64,000 bases of DNA, taken from the NCBI GenBank assembly GCA_963586925.1, contig CAVAAT010000016.1, positions 30,774 to 94,773 on the forward strand, read 5' to 3'. Position numbers and translations under genes: made by a program. This DNA is from Erysipelotrichaceae bacterium (GTDB taxonomy: Bacteria; Bacillota_I; Bacilli_A; Erysipelotrichales; Erysipelotrichaceae). A model generated the notes under the pieces. The model saw only the letters and a list, made by a program, of their open reading frames with translations, searched no databases and was not told the origin of the DNA. Below are positions 24,688 to 35,085 of the stretch, piece after piece (within the stretch, counting starts at the first letter, position 1; each line of letters begins with the position of its first letter).

Positions 24688-24810
24688 AAATTTCTCTACC
24701 TCCTATGTGTGTACATATATTATAAATATTTTTTTCTCAAAAATATTTAAGATTTGTTTAAAATAACAGTTATATAATGTAAAATGATATATATAAAAGA
24801 GGTACACAAA

Positions 24811-25665
24811 ATGAATGATTACCAAGTGAGATTATTTCTATCACTTTCTGAAACTAGTAGCTTATCTAAGACCGCAAAAGAATTTGGTATAAACTATCAA
24901 AACGTTACCTATCAGCTAGATAGATTAGAAGAGGAATTTAATTCGAAGTTTTTTGAAAGAGACAAAAAGGGATGCATAATCACTCAATCAGGCATTGTAT
25001 TTCAAGCATTTGCTAAAAATTTCTTAACTAGTTATGAAAATACTAGAGAAAAGATAACTTTAGTAGAAGATAATATTTTATTTGGTGTTAATTATCAGAT
25101 TATCCAGCCAATCGTCTCTACTTTCTATAATAATTACCCAAATGAAAAAATCGTATATATCCCTATGGAATACTCTAATCTTTATAATGCTTTAAAAGAT
25201 GGAGAAATATCATGCTTTTTAGGTCATGAAAAAAAATGGGATAAAAATATATATTACGAGCCTCTACTCAAAGACTATTTATGCATAGTTACTAATGATA
25301 AGCAAACACTAAATAAAAAAGGATCCATTGCATTTTCTAAGCTGGAAGGTTTAACAATTGATATAAGTAAACATATTTATGTAAAAAATGCGATTCCACT
25401 AAAACAGCTCGCCTTAAAAAACACAATTAAAACAGACAGTATACCAGCAGTATTCGAGCATCAAATACTATACGGTCAGTCAGCAACTATTGTCCCTTCG
25501 TTATATAGAAAATTATATCCCATGGATAACCTTTTCACTCCGATCAGTGATTCTCATATTGCTTTCGGTCTATATTATAAAAATAAAAATAAACAAATTG
25601 ATGATCTAATTACTAAGTTAAAAACAATTTCTAAAGAATTTAACAAATCCTTAATAGATGATTGA
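24811..25665 (+). CDS. LysR-family transcriptional regulator
   Basis: N-terminal HTH (MNDYQVRLFLSLSETSSLSKTAKEFGINYQNVTYQLDRLEEEF); start at 24811 after AAAGAGGT RBS. Confidence 0.8.
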   Translation: MNDYQVRLFLSLSETSSLSKTAKEFGINYQNVTYQLDRLEEEFNSKFFERDKKGCIITQSGIVFQAFAKNFLTSYENTREKITLVEDNILFGVNYQIIQPIVSTFYNNYPNEKIVYIPMEYSNLYNALKDGEISCFLGHEKKWDKNIYYEPLLKDYLCIVTNDKQTLNKKGSIAFSKLEGLTIDISKHIYVKNAIPLKQLALKNTIKTDSIPAVFEHQILYGQSATIVPSLYRKLYPMDNLFTPISDSHIAFGLYYKNKNKQIDDLITKLKTISKEFNKSLIDD

Positions 25666-25760
25666 TTACTAATATTAAAAGAAGTCCGAAGACTTCCACT
25701 CAATTAATTTTAAACTTTTCACGATTATATGTGAAATCTGTTTTACGAATCATCACACGC

Positions 25761-26171
25761 CTATTTTTTCTTTACTGCAACTAATTCATAAATGTAGAAA
25801 ACCAATGTAACCATCAAAATCCCAGCAACTATAAATATTTTACAATTACTATTAAATTCAATTACATTTCCCGAAGTTTCGATCACTTTAATTACTTTAT
25901 TATTGTTAAAGAAATCAAGCCATGACAAGAAAGAAATTGATACAAAAGATATCACAACATAATTATTTAACCATTTTATATCAGTTAAAGCATCAAGTAA
26001 GATAACTATTGTGGTTATAAGTAAAAGTTTACTAAGTACTCCAACAGTTATAATAGTATATTGAATAGGGGTTGAGAAATAATCTAATGTTGCATACTCA
26101 ATATACAAACTAGCAAATAATCCTATCGCCAATAACACTTTGATAATTTTATTAATCAGACCATTGTGCAT
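25761..26171 (-). CDS. Small polytopic membrane protein (paralog of 23694..24104)
   Basis: 136 aa, about 4 predicted TM segments; overlaps 3' end of upstream secreted-protein gene by 20 nt. Confidence 0.6.
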   Translation of the reverse strand: MHNGLINKIIKVLLAIGLFASLYIEYATLDYFSTPIQYTIITVGVLSKLLLITTIVILLDALTDIKWLNNYVVISFVSISFLSWLDFFNNNKVIKVIETSGNVIEFNSNCKIFIVAGILMVTLVFYIYELVAVKKK

Positions 26172-27417
26172 ATTCAGACCTATAAGTACAAAGATTATTA
26201 TTTAATAGAAGATCATTATTGTAATTAGTTAAAGCAGTATTGCGAACTGTAGTATCTGAATAAGAATATACCGAACTTGGTTGATGAACCCAATTAAATT
26301 CTCCAGTATTCAAATATCCACCTCTAAATCTTCCTTGAGTATCTGCATATCTAATGACTAACACATATCCATGAACAACAGTTGGATCATTAACACAGCC
26401 CCTTTTAGTTGCTTTATAACTATAATTAGCACTACTGCTTAATCTTACTGACTCTTGCAATGTATTAGCAGCCGAATATCCAACTCCCAATACATCTAAA
26501 ATAATCTTAACTGCCGATACACTAACATCTAAAGCATCTCCAATCACAGTTAAAGCAGTACTAGTAACAAAATTAACCCAATTAGCTGATACCTTGGTAT
26601 AAGTATTCCTTGTTTCAGTAACTTTTACTGCGACAGAGCGGTTTAAAGCCGTACAAGTTAATTGAGTATTAGATTTAACTTTGTTGGTATACATTGGAAA
26701 TTTAGATTTAAGATGACTTAATAGTTGAGCATCGCTCTGTGGAACAGAACTACTAGATACAGTTGATGAATTATTCAATGATTCTAATAAAATATCAAAA
26801 TCTGGTTCTATAACAACATTACCATCATCATCAGTTATAACATTAATACCTTTGATCAATTTAACTTCATCTATCTTTCCTTCATCTAATAATTCATAGA
26901 TCTTTTCAAGTAATGTGTCACTGATCTCAAAATGATAACCTTCCCTAAAATGAGTTGTAATATAAGCTGTATCTTTTTCCTCAATATAAAGCCAATCTTC
27001 ATCAATATCATAAACTAATTTTTGTTTAAACCCATCTTGTCCATACCAAAGACAAACTTCTCTTCCATCATCAGTATAATATTGTATGTAAACATTATCA
27101 TCATCACAATAATATATTTCTCTGATCTTCAAAAACTTTTTTAATAATTTTTCAAATTGTGGACAATCGTATGCTGTTTCTTCTCCACCAGTAGCTTCAA
27201 TTACTGCATTGACTGCTTCTAATTCATCAAATTCATCTACAAAACCGTAAGCTAGAAACTCTTTCTTCTGTGAATCATCTAACTCTTTAGTACGAGAGTT
27301 AAAAGTAAAAATGATTCCAGAATCAATCTCAGTGTTATCTGCAAATACTAATCTTGTAGAAAAGCAACTCAAAAAGATTGTAAATATAGCCAACATCAAA
27401 CATAACTTTTTTTTCAT
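26152..27417 (-). CDS. Secreted protein of unknown function
   Basis: 421 aa; N-terminal signal peptide (MKKKLCLMLAIFTIFLSCFSTRLVFA); Ser/Thr/Asn-rich C-terminal half; no recognisable domain. Confidence 0.6.
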   Translation of the reverse strand: MKKKLCLMLAIFTIFLSCFSTRLVFADNTEIDSGIIFTFNSRTKELDDSQKKEFLAYGFVDEFDELEAVNAVIEATGGEETAYDCPQFEKLLKKFLKIREIYYCDDDNVYIQYYTDDGREVCLWYGQDGFKQKLVYDIDEDWLYIEEKDTAYITTHFREGYHFEISDTLLEKIYELLDEGKIDEVKLIKGINVITDDDGNVVIEPDFDILLESLNNSSTVSSSSVPQSDAQLLSHLKSKFPMYTNKVKSNTQLTCTALNRSVAVKVTETRNTYTKVSANWVNFVTSTALTVIGDALDVSVSAVKIILDVLGVGYSAANTLQESVRLSSSANYSYKATKRGCVNDPTVVHGYVLVIRYADTQGRFRGGYLNTGEFNWVHQPSSVYSYSDTTVRNTALTNYNNDLLLNNNLCTYRSEYAQWSD

Positions 27418-27762: not shown

Positions 27763-27808
27763 AAAAAAACATCGATGTTACCTATGATTAAGGTACTATC
27801 GATGTTTT
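27763..27808 (-). terminator. Rho-independent terminator ending the SPFH/TPM module operon
   Basis: Long hairpin (aacatcgat...tacct...aggta...atcgatgtt) followed by a 7-T run on the minus strand, 20 nt after the stop of 27830..28312. Confidence 0.5.
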
Positions 27809-27829: not shown

Positions 27830-28312
27830 CTATTTCCAAGGGTCTTCTTCTTTTGGTAAACGAATACCGACCATCAGATTATTTTGCCATAAGAAATACT
27901 GATCAGCTTTCTTACGTAATTTTACACTTCTATCACTATCTGCTCCTGAAGAAGTAATATAAAGAGTCACATAACCATCTTGAGAATAAGAATAAGGATT
28001 ATCTCTAACCGTGATCGTATAAGGAATAGTAGGTGTGTAGTTATTTTCTACACTTGTCCCGACTAAATAAGAACGCATTAAATATTTCTTATCTGCTAGT
28101 CTATCTCTTAAAAACTGTTTATCTATGTTGTTCAATTCAACTGGACCTTTTAAATAGTTTATCATTTCAATAGTCCTATCAACATCTTTCTCATAATGAC
28201 ATAATGCTAAAACGACCATTGCTGCTACTTCATACTCATCTTTAAGATCAGACATAACTTTTAATTCTTCCACATTTTGTGGAAGTTTATCATAACTAAA
28301 AGTTTTTTCCAT
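27830..28312 (-). CDS. Hypothetical cytosolic protein (last gene of SPFH/TPM module)
   Basis: 160 aa; no TM or signal; stop/start overlap with upstream TPM gene. Confidence 0.55.
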   Translation of the reverse strand: MEKTFSYDKLPQNVEELKVMSDLKDEYEVAAMVVLALCHYEKDVDRTIEMINYLKGPVELNNIDKQFLRDRLADKKYLMRSYLVGTSVENNYTPTIPYTITVRDNPYSYSQDGYVTLYITSSGADSDRSVKLRKKADQYFLWQNNLMVGIRLPKEEDPWK

Positions 28313-29391
28313 TAGAAATGTCCTCCTCCTCTTCCTCCACTTCTGCTTCCTGATGAGCCTGAGAAGCTACTACCTCCAGAATGATGAGAAGAATGAGATG
28401 AACCACCTCTATCATTATCCTTTGGTCTAGGAGTCTTTGATACATGACTATACAAGAAGATATCTCTTTGATCATTTAATCTAAATGAATTTTTACGTAA
28501 ATAAGAAGTTGCATCATATTTTCTTCTTACTGACTTATTCTTACCTTTTAATATACCCGTATAAACTAAGGCAGCCACAAGTCCTGATCCACCAGCTACT
28601 CCTGCAGGAAGACCTAAATCATTTAAATGAAACTGCTCTTTATCAACTTTTACTTTAATAGGAGAACTATTAACATTGAATACTATATTTTCTGGTCTTT
28701 CATAATTGTCATCAATATAAGTACAAACAGCAGTATATTGCTGTCCTGCTTCGATTTCAACTTGGCCTTTACCATTACTACAATAAATAGAATCCCAATA
28801 ATTACCATCTGAGTCATAGATATCAAAATTAGAATCAACATGATTTCCGTCAGCATCCTGAACAACAAATTCAATTATTTCTGTTTTAACATCAACGATC
28901 TGTCCACCTTCACCTGAAGTAAGTAAACTATCAACTGATTTGATCCAGCCTTTAACTGCCTCGTACAAACCATAATTCGAATAATCATCAGCAAACTCAT
29001 CGCCAAGGTTATCGATAGAATAATCAGTAATATAATTGAAACATTTACCGTTTTTATCATTAGTCATGTAATAAGTTCTTGAACCCATATCAATTGTAAG
29101 TAATATGCCATCATAATTTGAACCCATGCCATAATCATATTCTTCATAAATCTTATTAGCATAGTCATCAATATCATAACCTAAAGTATCACTAACAACT
29201 GCCACACAAATATCAGCTTGATGCGTTTCACTTAAACTATCAGCTAGTTGATTAAGCTCTGTTAACTGATCTTGAGTTAATTCACCTGTATTATCAGTAA
29301 CACGGCTATTTTTAGCTGACAAACCTTTTGGTACAACCATTAGGAAAACGATGAACATAATAAATAATATCTTACTAATCTTTTTGATCAT
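28312..29391 (-). CDS. TPM-domain protein (YgcG-like) with C-terminal TM segment and Gly/Ser/His-rich tail
   Basis: Signal peptide; TPM motif (ADICVAVVSDTLGYDIDDYANKIYEEYDYG...DGILLTIDMGSRTYY); TM helix then GGSSHSSHHSGGSSFSGSSGSRSGGRGGG tail. Confidence 0.75.
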   Translation of the reverse strand: MIKKISKILFIMFIVFLMVVPKGLSAKNSRVTDNTGELTQDQLTELNQLADSLSETHQADICVAVVSDTLGYDIDDYANKIYEEYDYGMGSNYDGILLTIDMGSRTYYMTNDKNGKCFNYITDYSIDNLGDEFADDYSNYGLYEAVKGWIKSVDSLLTSGEGGQIVDVKTEIIEFVVQDADGNHVDSNFDIYDSDGNYWDSIYCSNGKGQVEIEAGQQYTAVCTYIDDNYERPENIVFNVNSSPIKVKVDKEQFHLNDLGLPAGVAGGSGLVAALVYTGILKGKNKSVRRKYDATSYLRKNSFRLNDQRDIFLYSHVSKTPRPKDNDRGGSSHSSHHSGGSSFSGSSGSRSGGRGGGHF

Positions 29392-29394
29392 CTG

Positions 29395-30471
29395 TTACCT
29401 CCCAACTAAGAATGCAATGACACCAGCGATCAAAGCTACGATCAAGAAAGCAATCATAAACCTCTTGAAATATAAACCTTTATCAACTGGTAGATCGCCA
29501 ACAAACTTACCTGTCTGACCATTCATCGCAAATGTATACTTTTTACCTTTATAGGTAGTATTTAATAACCACACTGGTAATAAGCAATACTTAACATAAC
29601 CATCATTTAGTTGCATATAAGAGCCTTCACACATCAAGGAACTGTAACCAAAGATCGTTGAGCGTAATTGTTCTTCAGAAGAATTTCTGATCCTCGTATC
29701 TGCTCTTGATTGAGATTCATTTTCATCTAAGTCATATTTATCAGCTAGATAACCAGCAAGATAAGCAGTTCGGAAATCTACTGCCTCACTCATATCAAAT
29801 GGTTCGATCGATTCCATTAAAGTAGCATCGATCTTTGTTGAGCCATCTACTGGTACATCATCAAAAGCCATAGTACCACCACGACGGATAGCATAATAAT
29901 CTGTCTTAGTATAATCGAAATCACGATCTGACCAAGATTGAACCTTAGTTCCTCTAAAATTAGCACTTGCATTAACATCAGCTGTATATAACCAGAATGG
30001 TACATATACACCCTTTATCTCATCTAAATGATTCTCACTTTTAAATGATACAGGAACTAAAGGTTTGTCTTTTAAATGCTCCAAATATTTTTCTTTGGCG
30101 TCTTTCTTATCCAACTTAAATGGAATGACATAGTCTGGTTTTAAAGAACCAGAGAACGTACTATTTAAAACTACTGGTGCTCCACAATATGGACAACTAG
30201 TAGCTCCCGTTGTTTCATCAGTGATGATCTCACCACCACAAGACTTACATACATAAGATCTAACTTTATCTTCTTCACTCCACTCACTATTTGGTTGAGA
30301 ATTCCAGCTTAGTTCTTCTTGGATCGGTTGAGAAAGATCTTGTTCATACTGTTTCATTGTCTCAATATCGACTTCAGTTCCACAATATGGACATTTTAAT
30401 TTGCCGCTCTCTGCATCATATTTTATCTGCCCACCACAAGATGGACACTTAAATTCTTGCAAATCACTCAT
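29395..30471 (-). CDS. Double zinc-ribbon protein with C-terminal membrane anchor
   Basis: Two CPxCG...CPYCG ribbons in first 100 aa, C-terminal TM helix (FMIAFLIVALIAGVIAFLV). Confidence 0.65.
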   Translation of the reverse strand: MSDLQEFKCPSCGGQIKYDAESGKLKCPYCGTEVDIETMKQYEQDLSQPIQEELSWNSQPNSEWSEEDKVRSYVCKSCGGEIITDETTGATSCPYCGAPVVLNSTFSGSLKPDYVIPFKLDKKDAKEKYLEHLKDKPLVPVSFKSENHLDEIKGVYVPFWLYTADVNASANFRGTKVQSWSDRDFDYTKTDYYAIRRGGTMAFDDVPVDGSTKIDATLMESIEPFDMSEAVDFRTAYLAGYLADKYDLDENESQSRADTRIRNSSEEQLRSTIFGYSSLMCEGSYMQLNDGYVKYCLLPVWLLNTTYKGKKYTFAMNGQTGKFVGDLPVDKGLYFKRFMIAFLIVALIAGVIAFLVGR

Positions 30472-30516
30472 AATATACCTTTCTAATATTCGACCGGAAT
30501 AGACCGGCCGAATATA

Positions 30517-31401
30517 TTAATTCAATTGCTTGCCACACTGTGGACAGAATCTAACAGTTGGATCAACCTTTGTTCCACAATTTGAACAGAATCTATTAAC
30601 AGATTGTACAACTGGCTTAGCAGTACCACACTTACCACAGAAATTACCATCATTAACATTTCCGCAATTTGGACAAGTCCAACCTGTTTGTTGACTATTA
30701 CTATAAGTGTTAGTCTGACAAGTATTGTAATTAGTAGTAGTGTTTTGATAATTGTAACTAGTTGTTACAGGTGCAGTAAAGCCACTCTTATCTAATGAAT
30801 ATGGTTTGCCTGTTAAAGCTTGTGATAATTCATTGATCATATTTTCATATTCCACAAATAATTGTGAAGTACAACTATCAGGTCTTTCAGTAAATGACAA
30901 TTCACAATCAATATCATCAAAATAAGGATTATTGACATAGACAGTCACATCAAATCTATACTCATAATCGAAACGCGGTGGATCATAAGAAACACTATTA
31001 CCCTCACTATCTTTTGTATAGATCTCATCACTATCTTCTGTTACCTTCGCTTCAAATCTAACTACTGATGAAATATCGATAAGATCAGCATTTTCTTTTC
31101 TATAATCACTAATTGCTGAAAGCACAAATCTCTTAGTGTTAGTATCAATATAAAATTTCCATTTTTTACCAATGATCTTAGTAGGAGAAAAGCTATTTAA
31201 TTTAATTGAATTCTGTTGACGATATTCCAATTGCTTCTTGATATCGGCTACTGTACTTTTCTTTCGATCAGAAAAGAATGGCGATAATTTAGCTGCACAA
31301 TCCTTACAGATATTACCATCTTCGACTTTTCTATTGCCTAAAAACTTGATCTGATTACCACAGATATCGCAATATTTTTTATCGAATAATCCCATAAGCA
31401 C
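30517..31401 (-). CDS. Zinc-ribbon protein (N-terminal CDICG...CKDC; C-terminal GWTCPNCG...FCGKCGT and CSNCG...CPQCG ribbons)
   Basis: 294 aa; C-terminal ribbon module shares the GWTCxxCGxxNxGxFCxxCGTxKP pattern with the adjacent SPFH protein. Confidence 0.65.
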   Translation of the reverse strand: MLMGLFDKKYCDICGNQIKFLGNRKVEDGNICKDCAAKLSPFFSDRKKSTVADIKKQLEYRQQNSIKLNSFSPTKIIGKKWKFYIDTNTKRFVLSAISDYRKENADLIDISSVVRFEAKVTEDSDEIYTKDSEGNSVSYDPPRFDYEYRFDVTVYVNNPYFDDIDCELSFTERPDSCTSQLFVEYENMINELSQALTGKPYSLDKSGFTAPVTTSYNYQNTTTNYNTCQTNTYSNSQQTGWTCPNCGNVNDGNFCGKCGTAKPVVQSVNRFCSNCGTKVDPTVRFCPQCGKQLN

Positions 31402-31406
31402 TCCTA

Positions 31407-32612
31407 CTATTCAGGTTTTTTAGTTCCACAATTTGAGCAGAATTTACCAGTATTTACTGTTCCACAACTACAAGTCCAACTATTAGACTCAGGTTTTTTA
31501 GTTCCACAATTTGAACAGAATTTACCAGTATTTACTGTTCCACAACTACAAGTCCAACCTTGCTGTTGACTAGTCTGAGAAGCTTGTTGATCATTTGCCA
31601 TATTGAAGAAATTCATCGCATTCATACCACCAGCATTCTGAGCCATGTTCATGCCCATAAAGCCAACTGTAGCTCCGGCAGCATTAGATGAAGCATTCTT
31701 CATCGCTTCGATCTGAGCATCAACTAAACCAGCACCTGCCATAGCAGCATTAGTATACATACCTGCCTTTTGAGCAGCTTTGATCATTTCAGCATCTTCT
31801 TCTGGTAATGTTACAGTTGAGATAGCAACATTAACAACTTTGATTCCTCTTGTTTGAGCCCACTTAGCTGATAATGCTTCATTTAAATAAACTTCTAATT
31901 CGGCATTATGATTAACGATCTCACTAGGTCTCATCTCTAATGAAGATAATTTACCAATAGCTGGCTGTAATGCACTGATGAATTCAGCCTTTAATGTGCT
32001 ATCGATCTCATCTCTTGAATAATAACTACTTACATTTCCACAAACATTACTATAGAAAAGTACTGGATCAACGATACGATAAGAATATTGACCAGCTAAG
32101 CGAACAGAAACATCAACATCTAGATTGATCTTCTTATCAACTACTTTAAATGGAATAGGGTTAGCTGTACCAAACTTATTATCTAAGATCTCTTTTGTAT
32201 TGAAGTAATAAACTCTTTGATCTTTTGCTGTCTCACCACCATAAACAAAACGTTCTTTGATCTCGTTAAATGTAGCTGATAGATTGTCTAATAAATTACC
32301 ACCGAATAATGAAGGTGATGTTGAGCTGTCATAAGTAAATCCACCTGCCTCAGCACATAATTCTACTACCTTACCTTGATCAACGATGATCATGCATTGT
32401 CCATCATTTACGATGATATTACTACCATTAGTGATGATATTATCACCATTATTGTTAGCGAATAAACCACTAGTGTGTTTTTGTCCTTTCGCAACTAAAA
32501 CATCATTAGCCAATGAATCACAGTAGAAATAATCCTTCCATGAATCTTTCAATGTGCTGACTGCAGCACTTAAACCTGCTTTAATAAGTCCCATTTTTAT
32601 AACTCCTTTCAC
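31407..32612 (-). CDS. SPFH/band-7-like domain protein with C-terminal tandem zinc ribbons (COG4260/YdjI-like)
   Basis: 401 aa; SPFH-like core (RIVDPVLFY...GIKVVNVAISTVTLPEEDAEMIKAAQKA), Ala/Gly/Met-rich linker, two identical 26-aa Zn-ribbon repeats at C-terminus. Confidence 0.75.
   Translation of the reverse strand: MKGVIKMGLIKAGLSAAVSTLKDSWKDYFYCDSLANDVLVAKGQKHTSGLFANNNGDNIITNGSNIIVNDGQCMIIVDQGKVVELCAEAGGFTYDSSTSPSLFGGNLLDNLSATFNEIKERFVYGGETAKDQRVYYFNTKEILDNKFGTANPIPFKVVDKKINLDVDVSVRLAGQYSYRIVDPVLFYSNVCGNVSSYYSRDEIDSTLKAEFISALQPAIGKLSSLEMRPSEIVNHNAELEVYLNEALSAKWAQTRGIKVVNVAISTVTLPEEDAEMIKAAQKAGMYTNAAMAGAGLVDAQIEAMKNASSNAAGATVGFMGMNMAQNAGGMNAMNFFNMANDQQASQTSQQQGWTCSCGTVNTGKFCSNCGTKKPESNSWTCSCGTVNTGKFCSNCGTKKPE
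31412..31558. repeat. In-frame tandem direct repeat, 2 x 69 nt with a 78-nt period (encodes duplicated Zn ribbon)
   Basis: Copies at 31412-31480 and 31490-31558 differ by a single g/a; encode KPESNSWTCSCGTVNTGKFCSNCGTK twice. Confidence 0.8.
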
Positions 32613-32633: not shown

Positions 32634-34103
32634 TTACTCAACAACAACTAAACGATCTTCTAATGAAATATCGATGATGTTGTTAGTAGCTAAATATTCA
32701 TAGATATTGTCAAAATCATTGGTAGAGACCACTTTGCTCGCCCCATTTTCCAATACCTTTTTTAATGGTAAACCAAAGAATTCATCAAAGTTATTGAAGT
32801 GGAAATTTTGAACACCTACTGTTAATAGTTTATCTCCACTCATTGTTTCTCCACAATATTGATACTTTGTGAAATCCTTGAGAGTCTTGTTATAAACACA
32901 ACTCATACCTTTCGATAATTGATAGAACTCGGTATGATCAAGCCAAGCTTCATCTCGACATATGTGTTTAAGCATACGCATTAGTTGATCACAAGTTACC
33001 TTGATCATATGAACCTTACCGTGATAAGGAAAGCATTCTTTCAAACACCCCAAGGTAACAATCGGTCCTAATTTTTCATTCCTAATTGAACCAGAGCCAT
33101 ATAACATGACATCAAGTCCTAACGATTCTTTTAATATATCAGCAGCTAAACTACCTAAAGTAGTCTGTTGATTCCTTTTTGGATGAGTCAACTGATGTTT
33201 GAATTTAGTTACGATCTTGCCATATTTTAGATCTGTCATACTCTTATAGTTATGGATGATATCATCTAACTGTTGATCTTTTTGACAAGTTAACTCATTT
33301 ATTGGTATATAATTCCAAGAGTAACTATCAATACAATTACTATCTGTATCAACATCAATATCAAATCTCCCTATACCATCTGTTCCCATAGCAGCTTGTA
33401 CAATAGGAATGCCATTAACAACTACTGGTTCACTTAATAATGTATGAGAGTGACCACCAATGATGATATCCACTCCCCATTCAGGATCTAATAATTCAGC
33501 TAATTTCTTATCTTCTTCAATACCAATATGAGTAAGCAAGACGGTAAAATCAATATCGATCCCATTATGAGCATTGCAGATCTTACCAACTTCCTTGGCA
33601 GCATCTTCCGTATCAATGATCGTACCTATAAGTCCTTCCGATTTAGCACAAGCTAATATCTCTTCTGTGACAATACCAATGAATAAGATCTTCATCCCAT
33701 CAATCTCAATGATCTTATATGGATTAAATAGTCTTGCACCATTAGTCTTGATATACATATTCGCATTGACTATCGGAAACTTAGCACACTTTTCAATGAA
33801 CAACAGATGAGCAATACCATAATCAACTTCATGATTACCAATAGAAACCACATCAGGTGCTAAAGCATTCATGATCTCAATAGTTGATATGCCTTTATAC
33901 TCACTATCGATAACTGAACCTCGAAACATATCACCAGCAATACAATAGATGACATTCTTTTCTTCATCCCTTACCTTATTTACGTAGCTAGACAAATAAG
34001 CAACACCACCAACTAATTTTTCATCTATCTTTTCGGCTAGGAAATCACCATGAAGATCATTTGAATGTAAGATAGTCAATTTTTTGATATTTTTCATTGT
34101 CAT
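32634..34103 (-). CDS. Cytoplasmic bifunctional metallophosphatase / 5'-nucleotidase (UshA/YfkN family)
   Basis: 489 aa; no signal peptide; N-terminal calcineurin-like motifs (HSNDLHG, GDMF, GNHEVDYG, GGHSH) plus 5'-nucleotidase C-terminal domain. Confidence 0.8.
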   Translation of the reverse strand: MTMKNIKKLTILHSNDLHGDFLAEKIDEKLVGGVAYLSSYVNKVRDEEKNVIYCIAGDMFRGSVIDSEYKGISTIEIMNALAPDVVSIGNHEVDYGIAHLLFIEKCAKFPIVNANMYIKTNGARLFNPYKIIEIDGMKILFIGIVTEEILACAKSEGLIGTIIDTEDAAKEVGKICNAHNGIDIDFTVLLTHIGIEEDKKLAELLDPEWGVDIIIGGHSHTLLSEPVVVNGIPIVQAAMGTDGIGRFDIDVDTDSNCIDSYSWNYIPINELTCQKDQQLDDIIHNYKSMTDLKYGKIVTKFKHQLTHPKRNQQTTLGSLAADILKESLGLDVMLYGSGSIRNEKLGPIVTLGCLKECFPYHGKVHMIKVTCDQLMRMLKHICRDEAWLDHTEFYQLSKGMSCVYNKTLKDFTKYQYCGETMSGDKLLTVGVQNFHFNNFDEFFGLPLKKVLENGASKVVSTNDFDNIYEYLATNNIIDISLEDRLVVVE

Positions 34104-34110
34104 CCCCTTT

Positions 34111-35019
34111 CTATTGTTGATAAACTTTCAAGTAATACTTTTTGATATTTTCTATCTTGATAAGTTGTTCTTTACCACTATAGTCAAATTCTTCTAAAGC
34201 TAATTTAACTAAATAAGAACCTTCATAAATGCCATAAGTTTTGATCACTAACTCACATAACAAGTACATACTTTCCGAAAGGTAGACTTTATCCTTATTA
34301 TCAGGCAATTCAATCAAGTTCTTTAGATAGGGGCCATTTTTCGAAGTATAGAAATCTTCATTAAAGGCAACTTGGTCAAATAGATAAGCACTAAGCCCTT
34401 GTAAGAAATACAACATACAGTTTAATTTAACTAAATTCATCTTACTACCATCAACAACTTTTTTTTGATAGTTGTTATATAAATATTTTGCTACATCAGA
34501 TAAGTCAGCTCTAACGAAATTCCCTTTGATCTTATCTAATTGTTCTTGAGATATAAGACGATGTTTTTGAAGTTGAAGGTATTTTTGTAAAGTTTCAACT
34601 ATCTCTTGATAACGATCATTTTCAAAGCTATCTTTACTTTCCTCTAACATCAATAAGAATAGTTCAGGATTCTTACTTAGGGTCATTAGTTGATTATCCC
34701 CAAATGATTGGATTGCTCCTTTCTCATAACGATGAACAGTTATCTCTCCTAAGCCTAAAGCAAAGGAGTACTCTCTTTGAGACAAGTCATATTTTTTTCG
34801 GATATCTTTTATATCATCACTAGTAAGTAAGCCAATCTTTTTCTTATAAGCGTTGATATAACGTAATTGGTTATCTTTTTCAACATTTTTGAAATAGACC
34901 TCTTCATTAGTAGAACTATCAAGATAATAAATTTCAACATATTCTACTATTTCATTATGATAATGCCTTTTAATAGTTCTCTTCTTTTCAATATATTTCT
35001 TGTCTAATACCTGTTTCAT
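34111..35019 (-). CDS. MqsA-like HTH fused to Panacea (DUF4065/SocA-like) domain protein, antitoxin-like
   Basis: 302 aa; HTH segment LSQREYSFALGLGEITVHRYEKG; C-terminal KLNCMLYFLQGLSAYLFDQVAFNEDFYTSKNGPY matches DUF4065 core (KLQKLLYYAQGW...W..GPV); 7-nt gap to downstream nucleotidase gene. Confidence 0.6.
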   Translation of the reverse strand: MKQVLDKKYIEKKRTIKRHYHNEIVEYVEIYYLDSSTNEEVYFKNVEKDNQLRYINAYKKKIGLLTSDDIKDIRKKYDLSQREYSFALGLGEITVHRYEKGAIQSFGDNQLMTLSKNPELFLLMLEESKDSFENDRYQEIVETLQKYLQLQKHRLISQEQLDKIKGNFVRADLSDVAKYLYNNYQKKVVDGSKMNLVKLNCMLYFLQGLSAYLFDQVAFNEDFYTSKNGPYLKNLIELPDNKDKVYLSESMYLLCELVIKTYGIYEGSYLVKLALEEFDYSGKEQLIKIENIKKYYLKVYQQ

Positions 35020-35046
35020 ATCTATAGTATAGCACTACATCAAAAA

Positions 35047-35085
35047 TTATCAATAGATAATTTTATTTTTGTTATCAAATGATAA
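35047..35085. promoter_or_regulatory. Two palindromic operator-like sites (TTATCAatAGATAA and TTATCAaaTGATAA) in the promoter region upstream of the HTH-Panacea gene
   Basis: Two 14-nt TTATCA-N2-TGATAA-type inverted repeats 25 nt apart, 28-66 nt upstream of the HTH-Panacea start. Confidence 0.35.

Follow-up and report, generated by a model that had tools for sequence, protein, structure and literature searches.

The closest described systems to the locus analyzed here are those of Bacillus subtilis, in which PspA is encoded together with three partner proteins in the operon pspA-ydjGHI, the last three genes of which are also known as samGHI. There, the soluble protein YdjI reaches the membrane only if both YdjG and YdjH are present, YdjH has YdjI and PspA as interaction partners, and PspA foci depend on YdjI (PMC8581546). 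The central domain of YdjG is stated to be NTF2-like/YpeB-like (PMC11237479). Furthermore, deletion of samI unleashes signaling by SamG/H, and the developmental phenotype that follows does not require PspA (bioRxiv 10.64898/2026.02.06.704340). All studies of SamGHI have been in B. subtilis, where it is read mainly as a PspA-recruiting device, and surveys of the phage shock protein (PSP) response treat the Bacillus operon solely in its PspA-linked form. Here, we describe a five-gene module at 27830-32612 (minus strand) of a 64-kb stretch of DNA (hereafter, the window; contig CAVAAT010000016.1 of assembly GCA_963586925.1) from an Erysipelotrichaceae bacterium. Comparison with its relatives suggests that the module is probably a PspA-free, extended, orthologous counterpart of SamGHI (YdjGHI), with a putative function in membrane stress. 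The kind of system, SamGHI/YdjGHI, is known already. In the literature searched, we found no description of the PspA-free form as common in Clostridia and Erysipelotrichia, of the stand-alone three-gene operons of gut Clostridia, of the altered gene order, or of the five-gene form with the families DUF4428 and DUF6935.

Homology of the five-gene locus with SamGHI

The window has a G+C content of ~32%, a uniformly negative GC skew, and nearly all of its genes on the minus strand. An earlier note, made from the sequence alone, had described five co-oriented and tightly packed genes, and all five open reading frames (ORFs) were indeed found on the minus strand between 27830 and 32612. Their order is SPFH (YdjI-like), DUF4428, YdjG-like, TPM (YdjH-like), and DUF6935, with intergenic gaps of about 11, 45, 3, and -1 nt. 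The three genes with counterparts in B. subtilis (hereafter, the triad) thereby lie in one co-oriented unit with gaps of at most 45 nt and share one terminator. This intrinsic terminator, which the note had called strong, was confirmed at 27763..27806 (minus strand) by direct reading and folding, and had been missed by our terminator pattern scan. The hairpin (AAAACAUCGAUAGUACCU...AGGUAACAUCGAUGUUUUUUU) is followed by U7 and folds at -20.3 kcal/mol in RNAfold (z -4.66; 1 of 200 shuffles folds as well). Two other terminator-like matches, both within coding sequences, were discarded, as such matches showed no excess over shuffled sequence (4 found, 3.3 expected).

We used the pspA-ydjGHI operon of Bacillus stercoris (L009) as reference, which was found via the published ydjG primer sequence (PMC8581546). 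Transmembrane (TM) segments were located by a hydropathy scan, and protein families were assigned with Pfam, NCBIfam, and PADLOC-DB v2. The likeness to pspA-ydjGHI that the note had proposed holds at the sequence level, with BLASTP matches to YdjG, YdjH, and YdjI, and from these alignments it is close to certain that three of the module proteins are true homologs of SamG, SamH, and SamI. The published domain architectures of YdjG, YdjH, and the band-7/Zn-ribbon protein (PMC11237479) match those of the module proteins as well. The parallel had been drawn to an operon in which PspA has Zn-ribbon, secreted, and SPFH partners; it stands, with the refinement that the TPM protein of the Bacillus operon is YdjH. 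In the PDB, a sequence search returned no solved relatives of the three core proteins.

The SamG/YdjG-like gene (29395..30471, minus strand) encodes a protein of 358 aa that aligns with B. stercoris YdjG over its full length (33% identity over 353 aa, E 3e-70). Pfam recognized the double Zn ribbon and the hydropathy scan the C-terminal anchor that had been read from the sequence before. The protein consists of two N-terminal CxxC...CxxC Zn ribbons (four CxxC pairs), a conserved central domain, and a single TM segment at residues 331-358, which is the layout of a YdjG-type protein. Because the only TM helix is C-terminal, most of the polypeptide is predicted to lie in the cytoplasm. An alignment of five sequences contained 80 invariant columns, and the family numbers 1797 representatives of 50%-identity clusters at E<=1e-30.

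Directly downstream lies the SamH/YdjH-like gene (28312..29391, minus strand), whose product of 359 aa is, in agreement with the earlier description, a secreted, TM-anchored TPM protein with a Gly/Ser/His-rich tail (Pfam TPM, E 2e-17). It comprises a signal/TM segment (residues 1-27), the TPM domain, an insert of ~100 aa, a second TM segment (263-281), a basic segment, and the tail. The match to B. stercoris YdjH covers the signal peptide and the TPM domain (E 9e-13) and is followed, collinearly, by a second match that runs from the TM helix across the juxtamembrane region to the Gly/Ser tail (E 1e-5). Signal/TM segment, extracytoplasmic TPM domain, TM helix, and low-complexity cytoplasmic tail thus follow one another as in YdjH-type proteins, and according to the predicted topology this is the only component of the module with an extracytoplasmic domain. 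The insert (window 28618-28941, minus strand), located between the TPM domain and the TM helix, is absent from YdjH of the B. subtilis group. It is weakly similar to SpaA/prealbumin-like domains (E 0.011) and is probably a beta-sandwich, with a predicted position outside the cell.

The first gene of the module encodes the SamI/YdjI-like SPFH protein (395 aa; 31407..32594, minus strand). Its start is most likely the ATG at 32594, which is preceded by an AAGGAG ribosome-binding site, rather than the GTG at 32612. The SPFH (band-7) domain and C-terminal Zn ribbons seen earlier correspond to Pfam Band_7_1 (E 3e-18) and to four CxxC/CxC pairs near the C-terminus. Between them lies a low-complexity linker rich in Ala, Gly, Met, Asn, and Gln, and the two Zn ribbons are arranged in tandem (WTCSCGTVNTGKFCSNCGTKKPE, twice). 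Identity with B. stercoris YdjI is 23% (E 1e-13), and the alignment is collinear from the N-terminus through the linker to the C-terminal Zn ribbon. The hydropathy scan found no TM segment, and a soluble Band_7_1 protein with such a linker and a C-terminal Zn ribbon has the layout of YdjI. More than 8000 homologs were present in the database; the closest were 99% and 88% identical, the latter from an Erysipelotrichia metagenome-assembled genome (MAG).

SPFH proteins commonly cage membrane proteases, as in HflK/C-FtsH and stomatin-NfeD. By this precedent, the module could be a proteolysis or quality-control unit regulated by its SPFH protein, with the scaffold enclosing a membrane protease or its substrate. 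The family assignment argues otherwise, given that the protein scores far higher against Band_7_1 than against Band_7 (66.6 versus 29.6 bits) and is a member of the soluble YdjI subfamily instead of a membrane-anchored Band_7 protein. Moreover, neither a protease nor an NfeD gene was found in or adjoining the module, here or in related loci. We consider a protease cage very improbable.

Absence of PspA from the searched loci and recurrence of accessory genes

The earlier note had reported that no PspA/IM30 gene adjoins the module, and this extends to the whole window: tblastn with Bacillus PspA gave a best E-value of 3.1, and a profile search found nothing. The profile was made from Bacillus PspA, E. 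coli PspA, and Synechocystis Vipp1, the latter two being validated by their hits to Bacillus PspA (E 1e-16 to 1e-22). Over 1.27 Mb (the window plus 98 loci), it matched only three Bacillus PspA proteins, and it detected no PspA within ~10 kb of roughly 90 related non-Bacillus loci. We also considered unannotated neighbors of 200-260 aa in related loci as hidden PspA proteins and ruled them out, as neither Pfam nor the PspA profile supported them. In contrast to the Bacillus loci, where pspA lies directly upstream of ydjG in all three that cover that side (L009, L010, and L011), pspA is not the first gene of the operon here, and the ESCRT-III-like PspA/IM30 effector of a strict Psp system is missing from the window. 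The PspA-less state is therefore the rule in the related loci of Clostridia and Erysipelotrichia and not a peculiarity of the source genome.

A module of this type might still depend on a PspA/IM30 protein whose gene lies at another site in the genome; only the operon would then be PspA-less, and the module would remain a SamGHI-type recruiter. PspA of B. subtilis is recruited by YdjI and also binds YdjH (PMC8581546), and Ravi et al. proposed that PspA-free partner operons may recruit a distant PspA (PMC11237479). The search covered 64 kb of the source genome. On the other hand, with no PspA within ~10 kb of any of the non-Bacillus modules, such dependence would always have to operate in trans, and the SamGHI phenotypes of B. 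subtilis arise in part without PspA (bioRxiv 10.64898/2026.02.06.704340). A distant PspA is compatible with the module being a counterpart of SamGHI; we regard it as possible and rather doubtful.

We then compared 80 metagenome loci, mostly from the human gut, that were anchored on the YdjG-like gene. The SPFH gene was located upstream of it in 61 of the 62 loci with enough upstream sequence, and the TPM gene directly downstream in all 68 loci with enough downstream sequence. Because the genes on either side are mostly unrelated housekeeping genes, set off by gaps of 150-400 nt, the triad stands alone. Flanking sequence of 4 kb or more on each side was available for 31 loci, of which 24 contained the bare triad and seven at least one of the two accessory genes, including four with both. 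The bare triad of SPFH, YdjG-like, and TPM genes is thus a widespread stand-alone operon in the sampled Clostridia and Erysipelotrichia, with no PspA nearby. Together with the window, about 90 relatives show the three-protein core conserved alone in abundant gut Clostridia and Erysipelotrichia, which agrees with the existence of SamGHI outputs that are independent of PspA. In one lineage, a gene of ~777 aa always follows the triad after a gap of ~150-250 nt (L081, L083-L085, L087, L088, L090, and L091; cut off in L085), and by its N-terminal sequence its product looks like a Clp-type ATPase.

The remaining two genes of the module encode accessory proteins in which the hydropathy scan found no TM segments. 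The second gene (30517..31395, minus strand), introduced by the note simply as a Zn-ribbon protein, belongs to Pfam DUF4428 (E 1e-15) and carries in addition a double Zn ribbon (E 3e-11). Its start is most likely the ATG at 31395 (MGLFDKK...), in agreement with orthologs of 292 aa. In the predicted model, the MGLFDKK motif is followed by the DUF4428 Zn ribbon and a helix; then come a PH-like beta domain and a disordered linker, which leads to two further Zn ribbons at the C-terminus. The fifth gene (27830..28312, minus strand) encodes the 160-aa cytosolic protein anticipated before. It belongs to Pfam DUF6935 (E 2e-50, 171.6 bits), is predicted to adopt an NTF2-like alpha+beta cone fold, and begins with a start codon that overlaps the stop codon of the TPM gene. 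PH-like and NTF2-like are fold classes obtained from predicted models, not functions. The Band_7_1, TPM, DUF4428, and DUF6935 assignments were all above the curated Pfam cut-offs, and NCBIfam gave no match for any of these four proteins. In a full-text search of the literature, DUF4428 was mentioned only twice, both times in passing, and DUF6935 in no paper.

The SPFH and DUF4428 proteins have a Zn ribbon in common. The motif W-T-C-x(1,2)-C-G-x-V-N-x-G-x-F-C-x2-C-G-T-x-K-P occurs as a tandem pair at the C-terminus of the SPFH protein (window 31407-31560) and as a single copy in the DUF4428 protein (30517-30690; both minus strand), where the first of the C-terminal Zn ribbons is of this WTCxxCGxxNxGxFCxxCGTxKP type. 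The shared ribbon could be a docking element, and we take its pattern to recall, loosely, RanBP2/NZF-type fingers. The N-termini of the two proteins are also alike, namely MGLIK in the SPFH protein (32580-32594) and MGLFDK in the DUF4428 protein (31381-31395; minus strand). Many DUF6935 homologs have an N-terminal extension that starts with MGLFD, MGFFD, or MSIFD, which the DUF6935 protein of the window lacks. Such starts presumably resemble the N-terminal membrane-binding helix of PspA/Vipp1, a likeness that serves as a lead only.

Within the module, the DUF4428 gene was found in nine of the 80 loci, as was the DUF6935 gene, and their positions varied. Loci retrieved with the accessory genes as anchors are in line with this. 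The order is SPFH, YdjG-like, TPM, and DUF6935 in L094; in L096 the same four genes are preceded by DUF4428, and in L006 the triad is flanked by DUF6935 upstream and DUF4428 downstream. Linkage of the accessories to the triad in differing orders was seen in independent lineages (L006, L094, L096, L097, L058, and L075), and L097 contains a larger, eleven-gene version of the module. A DUF6935-DUF4428 pair also exists in another bacterium (L098, 7422-9017), where no SPFH/YdjG/TPM triad lies within 8 kb, and a lone DUF6935 gene with the MGFFD extension is present on a contig assigned to an archaeal (Methanocorpusculum) MAG (L095, 6437-7021). DUF4428 and DUF6935 are therefore recurrent accessories in a minority of lineages and are not part of the Bacillus system. 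As their linkage is kept despite the varying gene order, there is good evidence that the two proteins act jointly, both with one another and with the triad.

Enlarged modules of 10-11 co-oriented genes were observed in Clostridia (L075 4314-12986, L077, and L097 4525-13819). Their extra genes encode a Zn-ribbon paralog of 433-434 aa, ORFs of 174-193 aa, a weakly DUF4428-like protein of 250-280 aa, and ORFs of 135-140 aa after DUF6935; no Pfam family was above threshold among them.

Upstream genes and genomic surroundings

Immediately upstream of the module lies a gene for a protein of 489 aa (32634..34103, minus strand) that had been taken for a nucleotidase; Pfam Metallophos and 5_nucleotid_C matches are in line with this. 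Since the hydropathy scan found neither a signal peptide nor a TM segment, this 5'-nucleotidase/metallophosphoesterase-like protein is predicted to be cytoplasmic. Its gene ends ~40 nt before the start of the SPFH gene, with no terminator in the gap. Another 7 nt upstream of the nucleotidase gene, a helix-turn-helix (HTH) protein of 302 aa is encoded (34111..35019, minus strand). It resembles MqsA (TIGR03830, 58.9 bits versus a cut-off of 61.8; Pfam MqsA_antitoxin, E 2.5e-6; HTH_3), and its C-terminal half is SocA/Panacea-like, below threshold (SocA_Panacea, E 2.5e-4, 22.4 bits versus a cut-off of 25.7). The protein has no Cys residues for the usual MqsA Zn site, and the antitoxin-like architecture comes with no obvious toxin partner.

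Directly upstream of the HTH gene we noted a promoter-like site (35026..35053, minus strand; TTGATA, 16 nt, TG-n-TATACT) with an extended -10 element and 10 of 12 consensus positions; it is a consensus match only, and the regional count of such sites was no higher than in shuffled sequence. A stretch of 7 nt separates the -10 element from the ATG of the HTH gene, and there is no ribosome-binding site, so that the transcript may be leaderless. Because no terminator precedes the SPFH start and a promoter-like site precedes the HTH gene, the transcript of the module may reach further upstream and include the nucleotidase and HTH genes, giving a seven-gene unit. The HTH gene would then be its first gene and is a candidate local regulator.

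We considered both upstream genes as integral parts of the module and rejected this, as they are lineage-specific. An intact nucleotidase gene is present in the window and in L003, an Erysipelotrichia MAG, and a homolog lies upstream in only two of the 80 metagenome loci; the HTH gene is kept at this position only in L003 and L092. In L092, which has ~90% DNA identity to the window, the HTH gene and all five module genes are intact and the nucleotidase gene is reduced to ~380 nt of remnants (L092 5340-5718), which suggests that it is dispensable and decaying in that lineage.

The same surroundings bear on whether the module could be an anti-phage or abortive-infection system, composed of the SPFH, Zn-ribbon, and TPM proteins with the nucleotidase and the antitoxin-like HTH/Panacea gene. 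Such a composition is suggested by the nucleotidase that adjoins the module, by the MqsA-like and sub-threshold Panacea features of the HTH protein, and by the fact that some homologs of the membrane nuclease SNIPE carry DUF4428 as their N-terminal domain (bioRxiv 10.1101/2025.11.03.685801). However, the HTH and nucleotidase genes are missing from nearly all other modules, and in L092 the five genes outlast the nucleotidase. None of the five carries a nuclease, NTPase, or other typical effector domain. Among nine proteins searched with PADLOC-DB v2, there were only two weak Zn-ribbon matches to candidate models (E 2.5e-4 and 2.7e-3), which identify no defense component, and the defense reading was set aside. 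The module also sits in conserved core synteny in relatives, from an rRNA methylase gene to scpAB, and a scan of the viral contigs of IMG/VR turned up no YdjG-like gene, which indicates that the module is not phage-borne. Taken as a defense system, the module would be a most unlikely find.

Between the terminator and scpA/scpB (window 24784-27417), there are a LysR-type regulator (plus strand), a multi-TM ORF of 136 aa, and a secreted ORF of 421 aa; neither of the latter two had a match in Pfam or NCBIfam. This three-gene block is present in L092 and not in L003, where scpA directly follows DUF6935, and it looks like a lineage-specific insertion.

Proposed mechanism and comparison with known systems

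By analogy with B. subtilis, we infer physical interactions, scaffold formation, a sensing role, and a stress function for the module. The SamH-like protein would expose its TPM domain and the beta-sandwich insert on the outside of the membrane and could sense the outer face or the wall. It may pair with the tail-anchored SamG-like protein to form a membrane-integral sensor and anchor, and the cytoplasmic parts of both would recruit the soluble SPFH protein. Under the membrane, the SPFH protein might oligomerize and serve as a scaffold as well as a brake on SamG/H-like signaling. The DUF4428 (PH-like/Zn-ribbon) and DUF6935 (NTF2-like) proteins might be adaptors or clients of the same assembly. 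The output would be envelope or membrane homeostasis and stress signaling, with no need for an operon-encoded PspA.

Several points weigh against an equivalence with SamGHI. All function is carried over from homologs at 23-33% identity, and not from any PspA-less member. The gene order here is I, DUF4428, G, H, and DUF6935, whereas in Bacillus it is pspA, G, H, and I, and the TPM protein bears an extra extracytoplasmic domain of ~100 aa. A PspA encoded outside the window may be the effector.

A bolder proposal is that the triad is a self-sufficient membrane-surveillance machine widespread in Firmicutes, to which PspA was a late, Bacillus-specific addition, and that in the extended form DUF4428 and DUF6935 make up an effector or adaptor arm that takes the place of PspA and docks via the WTC-type Zn ribbon and the N-terminal MG(L/F)(F/I)(D/K) motifs. 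We put this forward tentatively, as an idea that may well turn out to be wrong.

Given that DUF4428 and DUF6935 are now tied to a SamGHI-like system and have predicted folds, both families acquire a testable context. The practical value is moderate and lies in better annotation of thousands of genes labeled 'SPFH domain-containing' or 'hypothetical'. The locus also offers a natural PspA-free system in which the function of an SPFH scaffold could be separated from the ESCRT-III-like function. As a variant of SamGHI, it would hardly surprise a specialist.

Set beside pspA-ydjGHI of B. subtilis, the locus has homologous proteins of all three kinds, namely an SPFH protein with linker and Zn ribbon, a tail-anchored double-Zn-ribbon protein, and a bitopic TPM protein with a low-complexity tail, encoded likewise in a single compact, co-oriented operon. 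Besides the altered gene order and the enlarged TPM protein, it differs in the lack of pspA from the operon and the window, in two extra conserved genes (DUF4428 and DUF6935), in two WTC-type Zn-ribbon copies on the SPFH protein where Bacillus has one double ribbon, and in its host, which belongs to an Erysipelotrichia lineage. The triads of gut Clostridia (Lachnospiraceae and Ruminococcaceae MAGs and contigs) have the same three genes in the same relative order, at 50-60% identity and with no PspA; unlike the five-gene form in the window, they mostly lack DUF4428 and DUF6935. PspBC-PspA of E. coli and LiaIH/LiaF of B. subtilis show no sequence homology to the module. Their soluble partner is the ESCRT-III-like PspA or LiaH, whereas here it is an SPFH protein, and the five-gene unit encodes no transcription factor such as PspF or LiaR. 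Nevertheless, the design is alike, in that a membrane sensor pair is restrained by, or recruits, a soluble oligomeric protein beneath the membrane, a principle that the SamGHI preprint argues is shared with these systems (bioRxiv 10.64898/2026.02.06.704340).

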